A stretch of 27,879 bases of DNA from a virus (Duplodnaviria; Heunggongvirae; Uroviricota; Caudoviricetes): positions 1 through 27,879 of the IMG/VR virus record IMGVR_UViG_2648501730_000022; one strand, given 5' to 3'. Under the pieces are notes generated by a model. It made no database searches. It was not told the origin of the DNA and saw nothing but the letters and a program-made list of their open reading frames with translations. A program made the position numbers and the translations under genes. Below, one piece after another: positions 1 to 27,879 of the stretch; positions within the stretch are counted from its first letter, which is position 1; the number at the start of each line of letters is the position of its first letter.

Positions 1-1983
1 TTACCTCTTTCTCAGGAAGTTTAGTCTCCAGGATTCCCGGGGCGGTTCAGTCACCTTGATAATGTATGCTTCAAACAGGTCACTAAACTTGTTAGTTTCA
101 CCGTTGATCTCAACATCTAATTGTTGCTGATTTTCCCATTCGATAATCAGATCATTACCTTCGAAAGTTCCTGGCGTGCTACCCTGATTTTTGATTCGAA
201 TAACCGGAGTCGGCAATTCATAGGTAACAGTAGGATTCTGGTTAATCAGTTCTACCCAATCGGATCGAGCGATGATACCGAAAGCACAAACTCGGTAATC
301 ATAAGAGCGATCTTTAGCCAGTGCATTGACACTGAAAATTTGCTGTGAAGTCTGACCGAGCTTAATCCAGTTAGGTGATCCGCTTACACGGTAATCAATC
401 TGGAAACCGTAGCGGTTAAAATCTTCCGGTGCATCCCATGTCAAAGTAACGTTCTTACCATAGATGGTTTCACCAGTTGCCTTAATTCTGAAATTAGTAG
501 GCTTCTGTACTGTCATTGAATCCGGTAAACCACTTGGTCTATTGTCTGGAGTTGCCGCATAGTTCAGGTCAGTATAAACTTGAGAATTATATTCTGTGGC
601 GGTGATAGTCATCATCCCAGCAATACCAGAATCAATCGAGCGATCAATTGCAGTAATACGCCATAAGGAATTATTCAGCTTCAATTCATCATAGGTTACG
701 CTGATAACGTCCCAAACTTCGGCAGTGAATGCGTCAGTAGTCATAAAGCTGATAACCTGAGTGATACGAGATTTATTTCGTTCTACACTCGCAAGTTTAT
801 CAATCTGGGCTTTAGACTTAACAAAACGATATTCAATATCTTTAGCGATAATTCGACCATCTTGACGAATAGTAGCATCGTTTTCAGCATCAGCCGGATA
901 ACGTAGCATTTGCTCTGAATAGTCAATTGATGGTTCTTGATACATCGCGTTAATGGTATTGAAATAACCGTTAGTGCCACCTGTTTTCAGTGATACCTTA
1001 CCCATCATGATATTGTCTTCATTGAAGGTATGCTTAACAATATCAGGAGCATCCAGTTTCAGGGTAATTCTTCCGAAGGATTCGAACATCACCCCGCCGA
1101 AAGTCTGCATAAGGCTAGTCAAGTTCTCTTTAAAGCTGGCGTTCGGATCACATGCACCGTTTGAATGTAGGTCCATCTGGCGTACTTGTTTACGTACTTT
1201 CAGGAATGAATCAACGTTGATGTTTTCAATTGGTACTGATAAACCATATTTTTCATTTGTTAGGTAGTGGAAAATCTGGTCCACGCCGTTAGTGCTAGCC
1301 TCAATAGCATTAGTTTCAAGGTTACGAATCTTTAAGCCCATAACATCGACTGCTACCTGGCTATTTGGCTGGAGAATATCAACACCAGCAGCAAGAGATT
1401 TGTCATCACGACGTAACACAATACACATGGTTGCAATACCATTGCCTTTGTAGTTGTCGTTCCAGTCTGATCCTAAATGACGTTTTGCCAGTGACAAAGC
1501 GGTGTTAGGATTCTTACCCGTGCGGAACTCAACTTCTAAGACTTTCCGGTATTCTTCTTTAATGTTGCCTTTGTCCAGTACACCATCACGGATCGTCATG
1601 TTCTTACCAACAAGAACATTTTTGTTATCGATAAACAGTGCTTTGTAATGGTCGATTTCACCCTCGGCAATTGCGAAGATTTGCACTAACTTATTGTTTT
1701 CTTGCTTGGAAATTGCCTTATAAACGCAGATTGCACCCGTGCGGGTAGTACCAAAAAGAACGGGTAATACTGTCTTAGGATCGTTTGATGTTCCTAGTGT
1801 CACCGCATTATCCGGGCTTTGTACTTTCGGTGTTTTTGGTGCGCCTACAGTGGAAGCGATCAAGGTCATTGCACCAGCAGCCATACCGATAGCGACTGCG
1901 GTCATAACCGAAAATGTTGCGGCTGCCGCCATCCCCGCCGAAGCACCAGCAATAACCGCGCCTACCAATACTTCAAATCCCAT
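1..1983 (-). CDS. Tail tip / central fibre protein, lambda J N-terminal-like with fibronectin-III-like segment (660 aa)
   Basis: Complete ORF, TAA stop at 1-3. Gly/Ala-rich hydrophobic N-terminus, then a segment resembling the lambda J N-terminal region (recalled motif, not aligned) and an FN3-like block (TLTWDAP...YDYRV). Last gene after the M/L/K-like genes; much shorter than lambda J. Confidence 0.55.
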   Translation of the reverse strand: MGFEVLVGAVIAGASAGMAAAATFSVMTAVAIGMAAGAMTLIASTVGAPKTPKVQSPDNAVTLGTSNDPKTVLPVLFGTTRTGAICVYKAISKQENNKLVQIFAIAEGEIDHYKALFIDNKNVLVGKNMTIRDGVLDKGNIKEEYRKVLEVEFRTGKNPNTALSLAKRHLGSDWNDNYKGNGIATMCIVLRRDDKSLAAGVDILQPNSQVAVDVMGLKIRNLETNAIEASTNGVDQIFHYLTNEKYGLSVPIENINVDSFLKVRKQVRQMDLHSNGACDPNASFKENLTSLMQTFGGVMFESFGRITLKLDAPDIVKHTFNEDNIMMGKVSLKTGGTNGYFNTINAMYQEPSIDYSEQMLRYPADAENDATIRQDGRIIAKDIEYRFVKSKAQIDKLASVERNKSRITQVISFMTTDAFTAEVWDVISVTYDELKLNNSLWRITAIDRSIDSGIAGMMTITATEYNSQVYTDLNYAATPDNRPSGLPDSMTVQKPTNFRIKATGETIYGKNVTLTWDAPEDFNRYGFQIDYRVSGSPNWIKLGQTSQQIFSVNALAKDRSYDYRVCAFGIIARSDWVELINQNPTVTYELPTPVIRIKNQGSTPGTFEGNDLIIEWENQQQLDVEINGETNKFSDLFEAYIIKVTEPPRESWRLNFLRKR

Positions 1984-2402
1984 TATTCACCCCCGAATCT
2001 ATAAACTTGTTCATAGTCAATGTCTGAAACAGGAATGGTCATCCAGATACCATCTTCTTCAACGAGGCCATAACCGGAATAATGAGGAACTACGGAATAA
2101 TAATTACGGTTTCCTAATTTGTGGGCTGTGACCAGTAAGTCGCCGTCCTGTAAATCATCAGTGACTAATTTGAAATGTTTCTTAATTGGTTGAAGGATAT
2201 TTGAATACCCGCTTAATTCTTTGCAGATTTTCAAGCCTTCTTCTTTAGTTGAATATTTTTTATAAAGAGAATTATATAGGTCAGTACCAGCGAGAATATC
2301 GATGATCTTACATGCAATTAGATTGCAATCATTCTCACCTTGAACGAACTCCTGACCTATTAAAGAATTGATGTAATCGGTGATAAGCCTAGTTTTTAGC
2401 AT
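1983..2402 (-). CDS. Tail assembly protein, lambda K-like (possible NlpC/P60-type Cys/His), 139 aa
   Basis: Track ORF trimmed to the internal ATG at 2400-2402, which has a GGAGG Shine-Dalgarno 8 nt upstream; the longer track ORF would overlap the upstream gene. Conserved Cys (ENDCNL) and His (VPHYSG); position matches lambda K. Confidence 0.4.
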   Translation of the reverse strand: MLKTRLITDYINSLIGQEFVQGENDCNLIACKIIDILAGTDLYNSLYKKYSTKEEGLKICKELSGYSNILQPIKKHFKLVTDDLQDGDLLVTAHKLGNRNYYSVVPHYSGYGLVEEDGIWMTIPVSDIDYEQVYRFGGE

Positions 2403-2448
2403 GTTGAATACCTCCATGCAGTTATTTACTAGGCTTAGGGAGAAGGGA

Positions 2449-3102
2449 TTATTTCTTAGAGCTAAACCATTTTGATTCTGAGTTCCACTTCCCGGCACGG
2501 GAGAAGAATAGATCGTTCTCGTTTCCAACATAGGATCGGTGGATACCATCAGAAGCATGACTACGAGCGTTTTTATCTAGAACTTCCCAGATACTATTAA
2601 GCTGAAATTCAGATTCGTTTTTACACTCATCATCTTCATGTTCGATGTTAATCCCGATGGAATCGACTACCCCACGGAAAACAGGGTAAGTGGTTTCAAC
2701 CTTGCCCGTGTTAGGGTTCAGGAAAACCATCTCGATTTTCACATCAGATTTATCGAATTGCTTGTTACGAATCAAGGTAATGTATTCCTCGCGAACGTTA
2801 GAAACAGTTACGTTGATCCCGTTGTTGTTGATCTCCTTCTCTTCGGTATTCGATGAGATTTGAAGAAAATCACCCGTTGCGAGATACGTAAAACCGTTAT
2901 AGTCCAAATCGAAATACCCATCTGTAAGCCGTAGAACGTCCCCTGACGCGGTGACTGCTTCGATAATGTGAAACATCGATCCAGTGGAGAAAAGTTGCGG
3001 TAGCGTCAATCTAGATACATTCTGCCCTGTCTGGTCGTTGTAGACCTCGATGAAGTCCAGATTGGTGCATAGTTTGCTGAATGATTCTTGAATAGTTGCC
3101 AT
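2449..3102 (-). CDS. Minor tail protein, lambda L-like position (217 aa)
   Basis: Start trimmed to ATG at 3100-3102, which overlaps the upstream TAA stop as TAATG (translational coupling). Assigned by gene order after the tape measure. Confidence 0.4.
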   Translation of the reverse strand: MATIQESFSKLCTNLDFIEVYNDQTGQNVSRLTLPQLFSTGSMFHIIEAVTASGDVLRLTDGYFDLDYNGFTYLATGDFLQISSNTEEKEINNNGINVTVSNVREEYITLIRNKQFDKSDVKIEMVFLNPNTGKVETTYPVFRGVVDSIGINIEHEDDECKNESEFQLNSIWEVLDKNARSHASDGIHRSYVGNENDLFFSRAGKWNSESKWFSSKK

Positions 3103-17466: not shown

Positions 17467-19371
17467 TTAGAACGATGTTACCCAGCTACGGCCTCTATTT
17501 GGGCGTCTGGCGATGTTTTTACGTTGTGGTCGTGTGATTGGCTTATTTTCTTCGATTTGCTCGTCAGATTGCGATTTAGGAGCTTCTACGGGTTCTTCTG
17601 GTTCGCGGTTCAAACTATCTTTGATGGCTTCGAGTTTTTCCCATGACATTTTATTGAGTACATGGCGAGAAGCAGCATAGGAATAAGCCAGGCAGTCGAG
17701 AGCCTCGTTTCGTTGCTGACCAACTTTTACCCAACGTGTGGTATTACCCTGCCGTTTCAACTGTTCAGATAACAATTGTTCGCAGTAGTCATCAGGAACG
17801 TCACCAATCTGGAAGACCGTATGAGGATCGCTGTCTCTCAAGTTCCGGTTAATCATTTCACGGATCATCGTCTTAAGGTTGTTTACGCCCAGAATTTTAA
17901 GAGTAAAACCACCCGTTCTTGTGTCCTTGACCGGAAGGATTGGAGCATCAACATTGCTTGCCCCTTTAATGGCGCATAGGTTTTGCCACCTAGTGCAGAA
18001 GCGATAGATCACGTTTGTAGCTCGTCCGTTCGATGAGTCCACGAAAGCAGATAGCATCGGGATTCGTTGACCTGATCGGGTATAGAATTTAGCTTTCAGG
18101 AAGTTGTAAAGCTGGTCATATGCTGGCGATTCGTGGCGTTCGCAGTTCACATCATAGAATGATCGGTGATCAACTACGCATATCCCCTTACGAGAGATAC
18201 CCAGCAAGGTAGATTCCAGACGGTCTTTTTGCTGGTCAACTCCACCTACCAGAGCCAGAACATCATCAGGAATATTATCTAAGCTAATGTCAGTTTTCAG
18301 CGTTTCCAGTTCGTCGGCTGTGCGGTCTTCGTTAAGATCATCGAAGGTTTCACCGAGCACCACATTATAGAACGTTGCCAGTGACATATTCGCGTAGCTA
18401 TCAGCAAAGTCCACCACACACGCACGGATAGAACTAAACGGAGACATAAGGCGGTTAGCATGAAAACCGATTACTTCCGCATTTGGTTCGGTGGCGACCC
18501 ATTCTCCCTGAGCAACAGCACGGAGGCGATCTGGTTCTGACCAATCAGTTTCACATGACGGGCAACGGTAAACGGCTGTGTCTGGATTCGGCAGTGATTT
18601 ACCATTGATTACATGCCAATCAAAGAATACTCTACTCCATTCCATTACGTGTTTGTGTCCGCAATGCTGGCAAACGACGTGGTATTTTCTTTTATCCGAG
18701 AGTTCCCATTGTTGGTTTATCGCCCCATCCCGCGAAGTTGGAGTAGAAGCAATTACGATCCTTGCATCATCACCGAAAGTGGTTGCGCGTTGTTCCGCTA
18801 GCTGGATCGGGTTCCCTTCGTCTGACTCATCAGCCGCATCAACTTCATCCAGAATAATCAAAGGCAGTGTCTTACCGCGCAAGTGTGATGGACTGTTCAG
18901 CGACATGAAATACATGAATGATCCGTTACGAAGCTGAATAATCGATGAGTTGTTAACGGCATTGCGATCTGATTTGTCGGTGATCATCGCCTTTAATTCT
19001 GGGGTTGCCTCTAATACTGGCTTCACCTTACCCGCAATCCATGAGTTCAATTCTCGAACGTTCGCTTGCAAAACACCGATATTAGTAGGGTTACTGGCGA
19101 TCCTGTGAAAGATAATACCGTTTAGCACAAGAGTTTTACCCAACTGTGCCGAGCACTTTAGCACAATTTTTCGCCTATCTTCGGTGATCGCGTCCATCAT
19201 TCCACGTTGGAAGGGATGCAACTTAATTAGAGATCCGGCTTTAACACCATCGGTTGCAACTACATTAGCCTCTACCCATTCGCTAGGTTTCATCGTTTTA
19301 GGTGGGCGAATTGCCGCAGAGATATTTTTAAGAATCTTTTTTAATTTGGCCTTATTAGAAATCAGTTTCAT
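17467..19371 (-). CDS. Terminase large subunit, lambda GpA-like (634 aa)
   Basis: Walker A motif (KCSAQLGKT) near the N-terminus; Cys-rich segment (CQHCGHKH...CPSCETDW); size and position match lambda gpA (641 aa). Confidence 0.9.
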   Translation of the reverse strand: MKLISNKAKLKKILKNISAAIRPPKTMKPSEWVEANVVATDGVKAGSLIKLHPFQRGMMDAITEDRRKIVLKCSAQLGKTLVLNGIIFHRIASNPTNIGVLQANVRELNSWIAGKVKPVLEATPELKAMITDKSDRNAVNNSSIIQLRNGSFMYFMSLNSPSHLRGKTLPLIILDEVDAADESDEGNPIQLAEQRATTFGDDARIVIASTPTSRDGAINQQWELSDKRKYHVVCQHCGHKHVMEWSRVFFDWHVINGKSLPNPDTAVYRCPSCETDWSEPDRLRAVAQGEWVATEPNAEVIGFHANRLMSPFSSIRACVVDFADSYANMSLATFYNVVLGETFDDLNEDRTADELETLKTDISLDNIPDDVLALVGGVDQQKDRLESTLLGISRKGICVVDHRSFYDVNCERHESPAYDQLYNFLKAKFYTRSGQRIPMLSAFVDSSNGRATNVIYRFCTRWQNLCAIKGASNVDAPILPVKDTRTGGFTLKILGVNNLKTMIREMINRNLRDSDPHTVFQIGDVPDDYCEQLLSEQLKRQGNTTRWVKVGQQRNEALDCLAYSYAASRHVLNKMSWEKLEAIKDSLNREPEEPVEAPKSQSDEQIEENKPITRPQRKNIARRPNRGRSWVTSF

Positions 19372-22030: not shown

Positions 22031-22645
22031 AGTGGAAATCCTCTAAAAGAAAGCGAATCAATCTAATATTATTTATAAAGAGAAAATTCTTGTTATTATG
22101 AAAAGAGTGATCTGGTAGAGTCCAAAACTGGTCTGTACTTGAAAGATGATTGGATTCAGTCGGGCTAAAGCCCCCCTTCATAGATTTGATTAAATCATCA
22201 TCAAAACGAAGAAGTATCTTTAGAATATAAGAATCTTTCTTTTGAAGAAATAATAATCAGGAAGCAATTTAGCAACCGAAGGTTGCAATCCCGAAGGGAT
22301 ACCAATACCTTTCTAGAAATTGATTGTTACTCACTTCGTTCGTTTACTAGAATCAGTTAGTAACTAGTATTAAATCCCTTTCTAAGAAAATCCTTTTAAA
22401 AGTGAGTGAACGCCGTAGGCGTGAACGTGAGCGAAGCGAACTATCAATCCCTTTCGAATCCTGCTTGCAGGTCTTAGAAGGTGTTGGTGGGCGCTACGCG
22501 CACGGCTACGCCGTATTCTTTTTGCGAGATCTTTCTTGAACGTAGTGAGAGAAAGCGAGCAAAAAGGAGAACGTTAGTTCGAATTTTATATTCTATGGTC
22601 TGTGGGGTATAATACCTTTCAAGGTCATACACTTACGTGATTGAA

Positions 22646-22764
22646 GTGTAGGGTTAGTGTAGGTGTGTAGGTTTCATAGTGTAGGTTTGAGGGTGTTATA
22701 GTGTAGGTTTACTGGCTAGTGTAGTGTAGGCCAATCCCTTTAAAGGGTAGGTGTGTAGTGTAGG
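22646..22764. repeat. Iteron-like direct-repeat array, 7 copies of GTGTAGG (mostly GTGTAGGTTT)
   Basis: Copies begin at 22646, 22657, 22665, 22679, 22701, 22724 and 22758, same orientation, irregular spacing; the 12-bp palindrome CCCTTTAAAGGG (22735-22746) sits inside the array. Confidence 0.7.
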
Positions 22765-22961
22765 TTTTCAATCAAAAATTTTGACAAAAAATTCTTGTAT
22801 ATTATTCAACCAAAAAACCACCAAAAATAGATGTAAATTCATGATTTAAAAGAAATTTTCAAAAGATCTCCGTGCCATATAAGGTTTAAAAGGTTGATAA
22901 TCATTATTTGCCATTTTCAAACAAAAATTTTGATACACCTTTCTCGCTTAGATCATGAATG

Positions 22962-22990
22962 TTGACATGTGTCAAGAACTATTTTATACT
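22962..22990 (+). promoter_or_regulatory. Near-consensus sigma70-type promoter with operator-like palindrome over the -35
   Basis: TTGACA (22962-22967), 17-nt spacer, TATACT (22985-22990); TTGACAtgTGTCAA is a 14-bp palindrome. Confidence 0.5.
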
Positions 22991-23128
22991 TTTTATCCTT
23001 GGTAGGGGTTGAAATTTTCCAAACAATCCCCATATAGATGATAAGCATGATTTTTCGTGTATAAATACAATGCATGAAAAATGATTGTTCACTTCTGAAA
23101 ATCCCTTGACTAACTGTTAATTCATACA

Positions 23129-23155
23129 GCACTGGTTAGATATGCAGTGCTTTTT
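23129..23155 (+). terminator. Intrinsic terminator ~140 nt downstream of the promoter
   Basis: GCACUG-(10-nt loop)-CAGUGC followed by U5. Confidence 0.5.
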
Positions 23156-23334
23156 CGGTCGAATATTGTACGAATTGATTAATTATTAATCTTCTCTTTA
23201 GCAATTCGTGCTCCCACTGATCGGATATACAGTTGTTTTACAGAGTTTTTGAAAATCATTTTTATAAATAGAATTGTTCAGAGCGAAAAGCTCTTTTTTA
23301 AGGAATTATTAATCCACATGTGAGGAATCGATTT

Positions 23335-23514
23335 ATGGCTAGACCTGTTAAATTTACTCGTGAAATGATTGTTGATATTGCTAAACGGTTTTACAGCGAC
23401 ACTGAGCGAGGCGGGGAAAACTTCTTTAAGAAGGAAGGGATTGATAGAAGCGGATTCTATAAGCTAATGAAGAAATACGAAATTCAGGTAAAGATTAACG
23501 TTCAAGTTTGTTAA
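23335..23514 (+). CDS. Small HTH protein, paralog of the 20099-20323 product (59 aa)
   Basis: ATG at 23335 has a GAGGAA Shine-Dalgarno 7 nt upstream (the track start is a GTG with none); MARPVKFTREMIVDIAKRFY... aligns with the other paralog. Confidence 0.5.
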   Translation: MARPVKFTREMIVDIAKRFYSDTERGGENFFKKEGIDRSGFYKLMKKYEIQVKINVQVC

Positions 23515-23630
23515 TCCACTTTCACTGAGAATTATATGATGGCTTTAAAAATAAAAAGCCTCCCTTGTTGCAGCAAAGGAGACTTGAAATGAACAATTAA
23601 AACTAACACAGCATTCAGGAGTATTTATAA

Positions 23631-24656
23631 ATGAAAAATTCTAAGCGCATCACCTTCAACCTATTCATCAAATCCAACGGCAAACTGAACATTACCGTTA
23701 TGGAAGGTAAAGCAAGCAAACAAGACAAATCCTTTGAAGTAGTATCCGGTAAGACTCTGACCGAAATGCGTCAGAATGCTGGCATCAAAGACGGTGCTGA
23801 ATGGCAGATCACTAACCGTTTCGACAAACGTCACGTTAAACCTACACTGGTAGAAGGTGAATCCGTTTATTGCTTCGCTCGTGCTGTTAAAGCCGATGAA
23901 ACTTACTATCTCGCTGTTATTAAAACTGCTTCCGGCTTCCGTGCTGTAATGCATCACAAGAGCAAGCGTAACGAATACGGCGTAGAGACCCAGGAAGTTG
24001 CAAAACGCTTCCGTACTGTTGCTACTGAATCCACTGTAAAGGATGTTTCTGGTACTGTTAACACCGCTAAAGGCGGTTCCTTCTACAACCACGCATTACA
24101 GGTTACTTCCTCCTTCTTCTGCAAAAAAGAAGCACAGAAAGAAGTTGCTCCGGTAGTAGTTGAAGAAGTTAAAGAAGAAGTTGCAGTGGTTGAATCTTCC
24201 GAAGTTGAAGCACTGAAAGCACGCATTGCTGAACTGGAAGCTGAAAACGCATCTCTGAAAGCTGAACTGGCAGCGCAGGAAACCACTTTCGAAGTAGCAG
24301 CGGTTGAAGTTGAAGCAGTTGAAGAAAAATCCATTGATGAAGAACTGGAAGAACTCCTTAACTATCGCTGGGGTAACGGTGAAAAAGTAGGACAGGAAGA
24401 ACAGAAAGAAGCTGATCCGGTAGTAGTTCCGGTTGAAGAAAAATCCGCACCTGTTACTAACTTTGAATCCCTGCGCAATAACTTTATGGCTAAATTCAAA
24501 ACCACTTGGGAAGATACCGAAGAAGAACAAGAAGAGATTGAAGTAAACGAAGACGAGATCCGCGAAGCACAGATGGCACTGCATGACGCTATCTATGACA
24601 CCAACTACAGCGCCTACGCCTACGCCTACGCCTACGCCTACGCCTACGCAGCTTAA
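23631..24656 (+). CDS. Strongly codon-optimised acidic protein with (AY)6-AA C-terminus (341 aa), function unknown
   Basis: AGGAG Shine-Dalgarno 9 nt before the ATG; codon use is almost exclusively CTG/CGT/GGT/AAA/GAA/ACC/TTC, unlike neighbouring genes; central Glu/Val-rich coiled coil; ends ...SAYAYAYAYAYAYAA. Confidence 0.7.
   Translation: MKNSKRITFNLFIKSNGKLNITVMEGKASKQDKSFEVVSGKTLTEMRQNAGIKDGAEWQITNRFDKRHVKPTLVEGESVYCFARAVKADETYYLAVIKTASGFRAVMHHKSKRNEYGVETQEVAKRFRTVATESTVKDVSGTVNTAKGGSFYNHALQVTSSFFCKKEAQKEVAPVVVEEVKEEVAVVESSEVEALKARIAELEAENASLKAELAAQETTFEVAAVEVEAVEEKSIDEELEELLNYRWGNGEKVGQEEQKEADPVVVPVEEKSAPVTNFESLRNNFMAKFKTTWEDTEEEQEEIEVNEDEIREAQMALHDAIYDTNYSAYAYAYAYAYAYAA
24612..24647 (+). 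repeat. Hexanucleotide microsatellite (GCCTAC)x6 encoding the (AY)6 tail
   Basis: Six perfect tandem GCCTAC units in frame at the 3' end of the 341-aa gene. Confidence 0.9.
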
Positions 24657-24671
24657 TAGAGAGGTAATTCT

Positions 24672-24914
24672 ATGATTAATCAAAACAAAGAATTTCTTGG
24701 TAATCTGATGTTAGAAATTACCAAAATGAAAGAAAGAATGGTAGCGATGGAATCAGAGATTAAAACTCTTAAAGCTGATAATAAGGCGTTGAGAAAGTCC
24801 TTAAAACTGATTGATGAGACTAATGCGGTTATGATGGATCAGGTGTTTCCTGAGTGGCGAAATGAAACTAAACCTACACAACATAAGAAACCTACACTTC
24901 GAATTGTTGCATAA
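24672..24914 (+). CDS. Small coiled-coil protein (80 aa)
   Basis: AGAGG Shine-Dalgarno before the ATG; starts 16 nt after the upstream stop; helical K/E-rich sequence. Confidence 0.5.
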   Translation: MINQNKEFLGNLMLEITKMKERMVAMESEIKTLKADNKALRKSLKLIDETNAVMMDQVFPEWRNETKPTQHKKPTLRIVA

Positions 24915-24936
24915 AAAAGGGACTCCGAAGAGTCCC
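24913..24936 (-). terminator. Hairpin terminator with UUCG tetraloop (minus-strand U-run; may also stop the plus-strand operon)
   Basis: Minus-strand RNA GGGACUC-UUCG-GAGUCCC followed by U6. Confidence 0.6.
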
Positions 24937-25013
24937 TAGTAAGTTTAGGTTAGGTTTGCACAACAAAGATGAGGTTATAATGAACATAATGCTACATTAT
25001 TCTTTAAAGCCAG

Positions 25014-25037
25014 AAAAATAACCGCCCCGAAGGGCGG
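25014..25037 (-). terminator. Rho-independent terminator with UUCG tetraloop
   Basis: Minus-strand RNA CCGCCC-UUCG-GGGCGG followed by a U-rich run (UUAUUUUU). Confidence 0.6.
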
Positions 25038-25195
25038 GAGGATTAATACTCAATCTATACTTGTTATGTTTTTGTGTTGTATAGATCACTGACTATGAAA
25101 ACACTGTACTGGAGTGTGTTTTATGGCTTTTAATCGGGAATCCTCAAAGAAGATCCCCTGTTAATAACCATAAGGAGAAAAGGCAGATTACACTA

Positions 25196-25369
25196 TTATT
25201 TAGTATCCTTTTTACAGCAACTAAAAAGAATAAACAGGATTAAGCATACCCAGCCGTAAGGCGTACCGATTAGAAATTTGAAAAACACCACCAGCGATAT
25301 AAAAATCAATTTAATGCCAGCGACGATAGTCAAAAACAGCAGAGTAGCAAAGTAGACAAAAAGATCCAT
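25196..25369 (-). CDS. Small hydrophobic membrane peptide, two predicted TM segments (57 aa); not in the ORF track
   Basis: ATG with AGAGGA Shine-Dalgarno ~8 nt upstream; translation MDLFVYFATLLFLTIVAGIKLIFISLVVFFKFLIGTPYGWVCLILFILFSCCKKDTK. Confidence 0.4.
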   Translation of the reverse strand: MDLFVYFATLLFLTIVAGIKLIFISLVVFFKFLIGTPYGWVCLILFILFSCCKKDTK

Positions 25370-25422
25370 AGATAATCCTCTTTGAAAACGACCATCATCT
25401 ATAGTTCAATTCATCGATTTAA

Positions 25423-25524
25423 TTAATGATACTTGAAAGCGTTACACACAGTAGAAATGCCAATGTGAGCAAGTGAATATACGATAGTTAATCCTACAGC
25501 CAGATAAATCAAAAATTCAACCAT
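25423..25524 (-). CDS. Small hydrophobic peptide, one predicted TM segment (33 aa); not in the ORF track
   Basis: ATG with GAGGA Shine-Dalgarno upstream; translation MVEFLIYLAVGLTIVYSLAHIGISTVCNAFKYH. Confidence 0.3.
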   Translation of the reverse strand: MVEFLIYLAVGLTIVYSLAHIGISTVCNAFKYH

Positions 25525-25554
25525 AGGTAAATCCTCAAATAAGAAAAAGGTTAG

Positions 25555-25573
25555 CGGGGGATGTTCTCCCCCG
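25555..25573 (-). other. Hairpin CGGGGGA-TGTTC-TCCCCCG between the 184-aa gene and the peptide genes
   Basis: Same 7-bp stem as the hairpin at 7987-8005; followed on the minus strand by a U-rich tract. Confidence 0.5.
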
Positions 25574-25624
25574 TAGACGTTGACCAGCTCAACATCCTTC
25601 ACGTATATGTTTAGTATCTAATTT

Positions 25625-26179
25625 TTAAGACACATCAAATTCATCGTCTTCTTCTGGTTCTTGTTCCGGTTCATCCATTAATGCTAATTCTTCTTCCTCG
25701 TCTTCTCCCAAATCTGCATTTTCGAACAAGTCCCCTACTTCATTTAAACGACGTTCGATGATCTCCCTTAGCTTATTCTTCAATGTTTTCTGATCAGTGG
25801 CGGATTCTAAAATTTCTAGGGCATCGATCGTACAAATCTGCAAAATAGTCTGTTTCACTTTCCCGCAGTATTCCGCTAGTTCCTGTTCTACATAACCGAC
25901 AGGAATCAGGAGATTCATTTTTTCCTGGTTCTCTCGTTCGGCTGCATCTGCCAAAGCACGTTCACGGCGTAATTTCTCTACGTCGATTTGTTCTTTGATA
26001 GAAGTTTGTTTAAGCGGGTTGATAATATTTTTCAAGACCCATTCTGTTCCTTCTTTGGCTGGCACGCGGCGGGTATTGGTGTTAAATGGCAATCCCCTTT
26101 CTAACCATCGCTTACCGCCACCATTCAATGTATAGCCATATAAACGGGAAATTTCTGTAAGGGTTAATTCTTCTTTCAT
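25625..26179 (-). CDS. DNA-binding protein, possibly terminase small subunit (lambda Nu1-like), 184 aa
   Basis: N-terminal HTH-like LTLTEISRLYGY, then GGGKRWLERGLP and EKLRRERA, recalled as resembling Nu1 (181 aa); acidic C-terminal tail. Confidence 0.4.
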   Translation of the reverse strand: MKEELTLTEISRLYGYTLNGGGKRWLERGLPFNTNTRRVPAKEGTEWVLKNIINPLKQTSIKEQIDVEKLRRERALADAAERENQEKMNLLIPVGYVEQELAEYCGKVKQTILQICTIDALEILESATDQKTLKNKLREIIERRLNEVGDLFENADLGEDEEEELALMDEPEQEPEEDDEFDVS

Positions 26180-26537
26180 TGGTTATCCTCCATTAAATTT
26201 GCGTAATTTTATTTATTGGTTTTACGCACAATCTAAGCGCCTAAATCGCATTCTAACGAAGGGAAAGATCCAGTAATGGTAAGGGTTAGGAAGTGGGTTA
26301 ATAGTCGCGTAGCGACCGCGCCATAAGTGAAGTGATCACGTTTTAGAATCTCACACGCACATCAAATACCAGGGTGCCGAAAACTCCCTTTATTTCATCC
26401 ATGGAACAGTACCTTTTTAATTTGTCAAGTATTAATTTCTTAATTTAATTACTAAATCTCACCCCAATAATTGAAAAAATATCAAAAATCAATAAAGTAA
26501 GCATCTAAAAGTCAGTCCATACCAAAAGAGGTATAAA

Positions 26538-27305
26538 ATGAAAAACATTATCGCTGCTATCATGCTTTCTGCTACTGCTTTCGGTGCTGATGCTGCGTCC
26601 TTTGATTGCACTAAGGCTACTACCAAATCAGAGAAGTTTATTTGTGCTAATGAGTCAATCTCCGCACTGGATTCTAAACTTCATGAAGTATATGTTAAGG
26701 CTGTTAAGATTAATCCGTCTCTTAAACAAGAGCAACGTAACTGGAATAAAACTGTTCGTGACACAATGATCAATATCGGGCAGATTCAGCCACTGGAGGC
26801 TGTATACAACGCTCAAATCCAAAACTTGATGAATGTATTATCTAAAGAAGAAACCGCGTCAGGGAGCGTTTCAGAGACTTCTGCGAAGGTTGAAGAAGAA
26901 CAACCGAAACAGGAAGAAAAAGTGGTGGAAGAACCGAAGGTTGAAGATAAACCAAAAGGATTTACCGGAGACATGACATTGCAATGCGATGTTCACTATA
27001 GCTGGGAAATCCAAGACGGGGTAGAAACAAAAGCAGTTAAAGACATTGGCTATCCTCGTTATAACTCTGGTGAACTTAAACTTAAAGTAAAAGACGGGGA
27101 AATTATTGAATTTGTGTATCGTGATAATTATGACGCGCATAAAGCAAAGACAAAAACAGTGACGCATCAGAATGGCGCAATGCAATATGAAGGCCAAGTG
27201 GATAACAAAAAATATTATGTGTGGCGTGATAATCAAGATATGATTCGCTTAGAAGTACATAAAAAATATTCAAGAACATACATTGACCAGTACGGGTGCA
27301 AATAA
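26538..27305 (+). CDS. Secreted protein with LprI / DUF1311-like N-terminal domain (255 aa)
   Basis: Signal peptide MKNIIAAIMLSATAFGADA; then FDCTKATTKSEKFICANESISALDSKLHEVY...QRNWNK, the DUF1311 pattern; AGAGG Shine-Dalgarno before the ATG. Confidence 0.6.
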   Translation: MKNIIAAIMLSATAFGADAASFDCTKATTKSEKFICANESISALDSKLHEVYVKAVKINPSLKQEQRNWNKTVRDTMINIGQIQPLEAVYNAQIQNLMNVLSKEETASGSVSETSAKVEEEQPKQEEKVVEEPKVEDKPKGFTGDMTLQCDVHYSWEIQDGVETKAVKDIGYPRYNSGELKLKVKDGEIIEFVYRDNYDAHKAKTKTVTHQNGAMQYEGQVDNKKYYVWRDNQDMIRLEVHKKYSRTYIDQYGCK

Positions 27306-27528: not shown

Positions 27529-27879
27529 TTATTTGGGGTTGACTACATTCGGGTTGCCAATTCGCCTGGCTAACTCTTGCTGAGTGATTTCTGACTGTAA
27601 AAAAGCATTTAACAGCAATACCTTAGAGGCGACGCTCAAAGGTACTTCAATAAAATGATCGTGACTATTTAATGGCGAAGGTAACGGGATAAGCTCGTTA
27701 TCTTCAAAATAAAAATCAAATGCGGTCAGTAAAGCATCTTTTGCCGCTTCCATCGCTTCAGCGACAGTTTCGCCCTGGGTCAACGCTTCAGGGATATCCA
27801 CAAAAGAAACCATATAACCGCCTTCCGGCGCGGGTGTAAGAGTGACGGGATAACGCATAATTTCGACTGTCTCTCGCAT
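27529..27879 (-). CDS. hicB: HicB antitoxin N-terminal domain with C-terminal HTH truncated; probable host gene interrupted at the prophage junction
   Basis: MRETVEIMRYPVTLTPAPEGGYMVSFVDIPEALTQGETVAEAMEAAKDAL... is a HicB N-terminal domain and matches my recollection of E. coli HicB. The ORF stops at ...QQELARRIG-NPNVVNPK*, inside the first helix of the expected Xre-type HTH. The ATG is at the window edge. Confidence 0.65.
   Translation of the reverse strand: MRETVEIMRYPVTLTPAPEGGYMVSFVDIPEALTQGETVAEAMEAAKDALLTAFDFYFEDNELIPLPSPLNSHDHFIEVPLSVASKVLLLNAFLQSEITQQELARRIGNPNVVNPK

Follow-up and report, generated by a model that had tools for sequence, protein, structure and literature searches.

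Do two very short hydrophobic open reading frames (ORFs) that follow a terminase-like gene in an Escherichia coli prophage encode real proteins, and if so, what could those proteins be for? The ORFs, of 33 and 57 amino acids (aa), lie in the virus record IMGVR_UViG_2648501730_000022 of IMG/VR, of which we analyzed positions 1 to 27,879 (the window, 27,879 nucleotides (nt) in all). A preliminary description of this DNA had placed two hydrophobic ORFs, with one and two predicted transmembrane (TM) helices and a Shine-Dalgarno (SD) sequence each, between a 184-aa gene resembling a terminase small subunit (TerS-like) and two terminators; all of this was borne out, with GAGGA as SD at 6–7 nt spacing, and the strand, which had been left unstated, is the minus strand (Table 1). 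Patterns of substitution indicate that both ORFs are translated genes under purifying selection, and we consider it likely that these real genes are the split counterpart of a three-helix membrane protein that is the partner of the TerS-like gene.

ORFs this short are frequent locally, with 34 of at least 20 aa in 2.5 kilobases (kb) of the AT-rich stretch around the cassette, so the mere presence of a 33- and a 57-aa ORF is no evidence and a comparison with relatives was needed. E. coli genomes and IMG/VR contigs together supplied 18 distinct natural copies of the cassette with both ORFs; metagenome contigs later yielded four more, and a 17-mer scan of metagenomes returned mostly chance matches, with 9 true loci among 76. 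Across the 18 copies, variable sites in the 33-aa ORF (ORF33) comprised 10 synonymous and 4 non-synonymous sites (23 and 76 sites available, p=2e-4), and those in the 57-aa ORF (ORF57) 13 and 10 (37.7 and 133.3 sites available, p=3e-4), giving ratios of non-synonymous to synonymous variation (pN/pS) of about 0.12 and 0.22. Four of the five alternative frames in each region had no synonymous excess, and the fifth, the antisense frame with common third codon positions, had a weaker one (p=0.05 and p=0.004), as expected. Because the synonymous excess is frame-specific, chance ORFs are ruled out. ORF57 is intact in all 18 copies and ORF33 in 17; one frameshifted lineage aside, no alignment gap falls inside either ORF, and gaps do occur in the flanking non-coding DNA. 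Conservation of the frames in relatives had been named beforehand as a check, and when run it found them conserved and under purifying selection. Homologs of ORF57 were restricted to E. coli, at 93–98% identity.

By Kyte-Doolittle analysis, the 33-aa peptide has one hydrophobic span (grand average of hydropathy (GRAVY) 1.22) and the 57-aa peptide (GRAVY 1.61) is hydrophobic over residues 1–52, with K20, K31 and a GTPYG turn as the sole interruptions, a pattern that fits two helices. The ORFs had been described as unannotated, which is true of RefSeq, where PGAP calls nothing in 29 of 29 complete genomes; it is not true of other submitters, whose pipelines called both, ORF57 as a 'putative membrane protein' and ORF33, or arbitrary N-terminal extensions of it, as 'uncharacterised'. 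We rejected the extended versions of the first ORF proposed by some gene callers (59, 56 or 73 aa): they run through two conserved hairpins (A and B, below), their start and frame shift with a 2-nt indel, and the SD precedes the ATG at 25524. Ribosomal bypass or frameshifting that would join the two ORFs was rejected too, as matching take-off and landing codons are missing and the ORFs, whose frames differ, are separated by three in-frame stops.

What occupies the same slot in relatives? About half of the related prophages have a single 94-aa gene after the TerS-like gene. At loci L040–L042 this gene, which encodes three hydrophobic helices, is bordered by the hairpin and the 3' flank known from the window, and when the window was aligned with L040, L010, L008 and L005 the flanks matched base for base and the coding cassette alone differed, the 3' boundary of the slot being the last two codons (ACT AAA TAA); synteny extends to L045, L047, L051 and L052. 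A word-indexed search with the 94-aa protein returned only close E. coli homologs (81–98% identity), and an exhaustive HMMER search of 1.84 billion representative proteins added just five further clusters. Four of these are full-length (92–95 aa, 31–53% identity, three hydrophobic spans), and each is encoded directly after a TerS-like gene of 182–187 aa in the same prophage synteny. One additional unsplit allele came from the metagenome scan. Examples of the unsplit family (P0007, P0013, P0015, P0016, P0017 and P0019) are annotated 'hypothetical protein' and, like the split form, are confined to this prophage family. An AlphaFold2 model of the 94-aa form has three helices at low confidence (predicted local distance difference test 65, predicted template-modeling score 0.34), which justified no fold search. 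Across six loci, identity among TerS-like proteins is 50–93% versus 23–53% among the membrane proteins, and the membrane gene is always present. By this comparison, the membrane gene is a core partner of the TerS-like gene rather than a sporadic one and evolves much faster than its neighbor.

The window thus has one plus two helices on two chains, in different frames and 53 nt apart, and not one three-helix chain of 92–95 aa; the total number and order of helices are the same in both forms. The ends are alike as well. Both forms begin with MxxF(L/I)xY (MVEFLIYLAV in the split form, MATFITYAVI or MTIFLTYLVI in the unsplit), and both C-termini follow K-x-TK (CLILFILFSCCKKDTK and CLIEFLTFVFKQTK), with KKDTK identical in P0016. 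In between, helix 1 of the 57-aa peptide is similar to the middle helix of the unsplit protein (FVYFATLLFLTIVAGI versus FVAFASLA-LIVEGI). Global alignment of the joined 33- and 57-aa sequences to the 94-aa protein scored 43, compared with 22.8±6.8 for shuffled sequences, of which 17 of 2000 reached 43; the 57-aa peptide scored 9.5 bits against the family profile, compared with 4.8±1.9 for shuffles, of which 48 of 2000 reached the real score (p about 0.02). These statistics are only suggestive of homology. Because slot, helix count and order, and ends are all the same, the most economical reading is that the two ORFs are a split form of one three-helix protein rather than two independent peptides. 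The split allele forms a single lineage, at least 95% identical internally, and at least seven diverged alleles are unsplit; therefore the split state is probably derived.

Table 1. The two-ORF cassette, its regulatory elements and neighboring features, in window coordinates.
Feature	Position	Strand	Description
33-aa ORF (ORF33)	25524→25423	minus	One TM helix (MVEFLIYLAVGLTIVYSLAHIGISTVCNAFKYH); SD GAGGA at 25536–25532, 7 nt before ATG
57-aa ORF (ORF57)	25369→25196 (ATG...TAA)	minus	Two TM helices (MDLFVYFATLLFLTIVAGIKLIFISLVVFFKFLIGTPYGWVCLILFILFSCCKKDTK); SD GAGGA at 25380–25376, 6 nt before ATG
Inter-ORF spacer	25370–25422	minus	53 nt; holds the SD of ORF57 and an 11-bp hairpin (25404–25394 with 25376–25366)
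TerS-like (Nu1-like) gene	25625–26179	minus	184 aa; PHROG 57 'terminase small subunit', E=6e-11, residues 24–172; first gene of the small operon
Palindrome	26200–26228		TGCGTAA-N15-TTACGCA, perfect; just upstream of the TerS-like gene, overlaps -10-like TAAAAT
Hairpin A	25575–25597	minus	GGAUGUUGA / UCAACGUCU; minimum free energy fold; first of a tandem pair after the TerS-like stop codon
Hairpin B	25555–25573	minus	CGGGGGA-GAACA-UCCCCCG; -14.6 kcal/mol; U-rich tract starts 6 nt after the stem
3' region	25014–25204	minus	About 190 nt, after the ORF57 stop
Stem-loop 1 (SL1)	25121–25173	minus	Long conserved hairpin; RNAalifold, 15 sequences; compensatory pairs, e.g. CG/UA/AU, UA/CG
Stem-loop 2 (SL2)	25052–25087	minus	9-bp hairpin, 18-nt C/A-rich loop; compensatory changes at 7 of 9 pairs
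Terminator 1	25022–25037	minus	CCGCCC-TTCG-GGGCGG then TTATTTTT; terminator scan; compensatory stem changes
Terminator 2	24918–24937	minus	AGGGACTC-TTCG-GAGTCCCT then TTTTTT; terminator scan; invariant in aligned relatives
gpA-type terminase large subunit (TerL) gene	17467–19371	minus	Structural operon runs from here to the tail tip
AT-rich gap	22031–23630		ORF-poor; GC down to 29%
Direct copies of GTGTAGGTTT	22646–22767	plus	Six copies, in the gap
Inverted copies of GTGTAGGTTT	23838, 24870, 24888	minus	Three copies, up to 2.2 kb away; two just past terminator 2
Gene for 341-aa acidic protein	23631–24656		Annotated length varies among strains
GCCTAC hexanucleotide repeat	24612–24651	plus	Encodes the C-terminal YAYAYAYAYAYA tail of the 341-aa protein
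LprI-family gene	26538–27305	plus	Lysozyme-inhibitor-like secreted protein; prophage-end gene, oriented divergently to the TerS-like gene
hicB	27529–27879		Split by the insertion (also L039, L043)

How would the cassette be expressed? The palindrome upstream of the TerS-like gene is the only match in the window, against 0 expected, and its arms are kept in all six diverged loci (TerS-like identity 50–93%), which suggests that it is an operator and hence that expression is regulated rather than constitutive. A promoter scan found no sigma-70-like promoter between the TerS-like gene and the peptides; read-through from the TerS-like promoter is therefore the simplest expression route, and co-transcription with the TerS-like gene is plausible, probably attenuated by the hairpin pair. 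Both hairpins of the pair are conserved at every locus. Hairpin A is kept in nine diverged sequences, with one UA to AU compensatory change and one UG to UA change. In hairpin B the stem variants GGGGGA/UCCCCC, GGGGGG/CCCCCC and GGGGAG/CUCCCC all preserve pairing, with one pair compensatory in four of nine sequences. A strict terminator scan did not call this terminator-like hairpin, which is probably an attenuator or else a stabilizing or processing element. The 301-nt 5' part folds better than all of 100 shuffles (z = -3.5). Between the ORFs, a predicted fold pairs the spacer with the AUG of ORF57, and the spacer has 1 variable site in 53 versus about 0.35–0.43 per synonymous site in the flanking ORFs.

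Downstream of ORF57, the 3' region is better conserved than the neighboring genes: in L047 its identity is about 95%, against only 52% for the TerS-like protein encoded there, and 63 of 5426 E. coli genomes carry it. Its predicted fold comprises two stem-loops and terminator 1, with compensatory changes at 17 of 35 predicted pairs, and an invariant -10-like sequence (TTTCATAGT) lies about 8 nt upstream of SL2. This is the predicted layout of a small RNA (sRNA) or a structured 3' untranslated region. Rfam had no family at E≤1 anywhere across 24500–26400. The terminator scan found four sites in the region versus 1.2 expected, and terminator 2 stands back to back with the end of a convergent 80-aa gene. 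We rejected a fold-back element formed by a repeat shared between the 5' leader and SL1 (25139–25153 and 25530–25544), which is not conserved in relatives with the other SL1 variant.

From these elements we propose the following course of events. Transcription would begin ahead of the TerS-like gene, at a promoter under operator control, the conserved double hairpin A/B would probably lower or process the downstream message, and each peptide would be translated from an SD of its own, the start codon of ORF57 lying within a conserved hairpin; the transcript would end at the two terminators, after the structured 3' region. Because the operon is shared with a packaging gene behind a regulated promoter, production would probably take place during lytic growth. 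The 33- and 57-aa peptides may then enter the inner membrane and assemble there into the three-helix unit of the unsplit protein, N-terminus out and C-terminus in, and act as a holin-like or holin-modulating factor of lysis timing at the cytoplasmic membrane; where the protein is split, helix 1, being a separate chain, could act in trans. Taken whole, from split three-helix genes through operon and membrane unit to lysis timing, this explanation is plausible to us but falls somewhat short of probable. The lysis-timing or holin-like function, judged by itself, is possible but doubtful. Considerably less likely is a fuller version, an RNA-gated lytic membrane effector in two interchangeable architectures (all three helices on one chain, or a separate first helix and a two-helix core), in which the 33-aa helix would regulate a pore- or lesion-forming 57-aa core in trans, antiholin-like, and output would be set by the attenuator hairpins, the second-start hairpin and the sRNA-like 3' element, making this a natural 'split holin' polymorphism whose two forms are kept at similar frequencies in E. 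coli prophages.

A lysis role had been thought unlikely for want of an adjacent endolysin. None is indeed adjacent: the sole endolysin, an M15 peptidase with no signal sequence, lies about 28 kb away at the opposite prophage end (L043, 10839–11192). The argument is nonetheless a weak one, because the T7 holin and spanins sit at the terminase genes, far from the T7 lysozyme. In favor of a lytic-cycle membrane role count the core status of the gene, its operon with a packaging-type gene behind a putative operator, predicted RNA structure over the translation starts, the holin-like size and predicted topology, an endolysin that lacks a signal sequence, and a prophage in which no protein matches any holin family.

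Several observations weigh against the proposed explanation. As to the split, the 33-aa peptide gives no signal against the family profile, hhalign and hmmsearch between split and unsplit forms yielded no significant score, and replacement by an unrelated cassette of equal topology is possible. In the sub-lineage of L054 and L123, a 1-nt deletion in ORF33 produces a 34-aa peptide that is still hydrophobic (MVEFLICLTVGLTIVYSWHILAFLLCVTLSSIIN). As to the operon, hairpin B with its U-rich sequence could end most transcripts before the peptides, and in L009/L027 (about 1750–3050) a 1.3-kb insertion sequence (IS) with a 413-aa DDE transposase sits exactly inside hairpin B, flanked by the duplicated target GGAATCACCCC, and separates the TerS-like gene from the peptides, with both still intact. 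As to lysis, Pfam, PHROG and NCBIfam gave nothing above noise, and no holin-family match, for the 33-, 57- or 94-aa forms, the cassette proteins contain no dual-start motif, and their charged C-terminal tail has only 4–5 residues (KKDTK or KQTK). The cassette is not linked to the endolysin, a linkage that is usual for holins although not obligatory. Two small TM proteins of 92 and 56 aa beside the endolysin are more obvious holin or spanin candidates.

The 92-aa protein, upstream of the M15 endolysin (L043, 10839–12740), has an N-terminal TM helix and a coiled coil, and the 56-aa protein is weakly hydrophobic; two more proteins, one of 227 aa and very basic, the other of 115 aa, are encoded there as well. 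None of these four matched a described family of holins or spanins, and a lipoprotein o-spanin was not evident. The L054/L123 sub-lineage has several extra ORF57 substitutions and was seen in one genome and one metagenome, two independent assemblies. A second kind of insertion was found in L157 (E. coli HeN100, NZ_CP044443.1, 1–3013), where an ISApl1-mcr-1-pap2 colistin-resistance segment ends inside the cassette; of the cassette, the portion with ORF33 alone is still matched there, as is the TerS-like gene, and nothing is matched for ORF57.

Could the cassette instead protect the lysogen or infected cell, as a superinfection-exclusion or immunity membrane protein that blocks DNA entry of related phages, its allele diversity the product of an arms race? 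The membrane protein diverges very fast relative to the TerS-like protein, multiple alleles occupy one slot, two of them are equally frequent in E. coli, and the cassette, which ends in terminators of its own, lies near a prophage end beside genes that look like cargo, the LprI-like gene among them. Such divergence is, however, typical of holins and TM proteins too. Exclusion genes acquired as morons are usually sporadic, whereas this one is present in every relative at a fixed operon position with a packaging-type gene; no promoter of its own was detected, and the putative operator at the TerS-like promoter suggests repression in the lysogen. PADLOC matched neither the peptides, the 94–95-aa alleles nor the neighboring genes, and an exclusion role found no match in Pfam or PHROG either. 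On balance we consider exclusion unlikely.

A membrane toxin under RNA control, in the manner of a type I toxin-antitoxin system such as hok, would explain other features. In this account one or both peptides would depolarize the membrane, and translation would be held back by mRNA structure and a small RNA from the 3' region. In size the peptides are comparable to type I toxins, ORF57 has its start codon buried in an almost invariant hairpin, and the 3' region has an sRNA-like arrangement of two covarying stem-loops, a single-stranded linker (UUAAUCCUCC), a terminator and the -10-like sequence; the linker is moreover complementary to a conserved sequence in the 5' leader (UUGAGGAU). That complementarity, however, is merely SD/anti-SD-like and does not covary between alleles. 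Unlike known type I toxins, the product is usually a 94-aa three-TM protein, and the module is part of an operon with the TerS-like gene rather than standalone. We found no antisense promoter and no convincing antisense RNA, only one weak consensus match on the plus strand (25278–25306), and no Rfam family matched. This account is improbable. Still less credible is that the window allele is a three-TM gene broken by stops and a frameshift into functionless leftovers: the single split lineage among unsplit alleles, the additional ORF33 frameshift and the IS and mcr-1 transposon insertions in the slot would fit decay, but both frames are under purifying selection where a pN/pS near 1 would be expected of a pseudogene, SD and ATG are suitably positioned for ORF57, the spacer varies less than synonymous sites do, and the split allele is as frequent as the unsplit one, on hundreds of contigs.

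The window derives from an E. coli prophage of about 35 kb inserted in hicB (strains C325 and PI7), the antitoxin gene of the chromosomal hicAB locus, which the insertion splits. A 559-aa serine recombinase is encoded at the prophage end opposite the hicB-side end of the window, and some relatives use an alternative site beside ycdX/ghrA. The M15 endolysin lies at the far end of the minus-strand structural operon. The region was found in 64 of 5426 complete E. coli genomes, plus IMG/VR prophage contigs from isolates; the split allele accounts for 30 of the 5426 and one unsplit 94-aa allele for 31. GenBank phages gave no DNA match to the window, and tblastn matched neither the TerS-like gene nor the 94-aa protein to them; the closest TerL match, from phage DCP80, is 43.7% identical. 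A one-genome-per-species collection yielded nothing for the TerS-like gene, and a literature search found nothing on this prophage group or its small membrane proteins.

The TerS-like protein itself has no Pfam match and no sequence relative in the PDB; one homolog is labeled 'terminase small subunit' by PGAP. Its gene stands alone near the prophage end opposite the endolysin, 6 kb from the TerL gene, and the interval between the two contains opposite-strand genes, a Rha-family regulator gene and the AT-rich gap. No TerS candidate adjoins TerL, an unusual layout for a lambda-type terminase. The GTGTAGGTTT repeats in and beyond the gap (12 matches in the window versus 1.7 expected) could be an origin, or binding sites for the terminase or a regulator. 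At the prophage end, some relatives have unrelated small genes in place of the LprI-like gene, which thus behaves like cargo.

Together these results identify two ORFs of less than 60 aa, skipped by RefSeq in every complete genome that carries them, as real genes under selection. The small membrane-protein family to which they probably belong is the fixed partner of a TerS-like gene in a prophage group present in about 1% of complete E. coli genomes; it is a new uncharacterized family within a familiar class, the small phage membrane proteins. Its natural split and unsplit alleles offer a ready-made test of how well a three-helix protein tolerates a cut after helix 1, and the covarying RNA structures that flank it point to post-transcriptional control. 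If the family turned out to supply the holin or to act in exclusion, it would account for a function so far missing among the lysis or immunity genes of a poorly known phage group.

How does the cassette compare with known systems? It shares peptide size and hydrophobicity, prophage location and structured mRNA with type I toxins (Hok, TisB, Ldr, Ibs, ZorO) and with YnaM/YnfT, and differs from the toxins in that no antisense RNA gene was found here and that the usual form is the 94-aa three-TM protein. A relation to YnaM/YnfT (NF041477) was rejected: only the 94-aa form matched, at 11 bits and E=0.41 against a 35-bit cut-off, the 33-aa peptide did not match at all, and the K-12 YnaM sequence has no specific resemblance. 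T4 Imm, P22 SieA and HK97 gp15 are likewise small phage inner-membrane proteins that vary highly among related phages; the cassette has no sequence relation to them and, unlike them, is universal in its family and belongs to a packaging-type operon with no own promoter detected. From holins it differs in having no family match or dual-start motif, a tail of 4–5 residues and a distance of about 28 kb from the endolysin. The likeness to holins lies in architecture: the unsplit form resembles class I holins of the lambda S105 type in its small size, three TM helices and predicted N-out/C-in topology, and the 57-aa piece resembles class II holins (S21, with XhlA/XhlB-type pairs among the comparators) in having two predicted TM helices with both ends inside. 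Extreme sequence diversity is common to holins and to this family, and the predicted hairpin over the start codon of ORF57 is comparable to the sdi stem of lambda, an RNA structure over a translation start.

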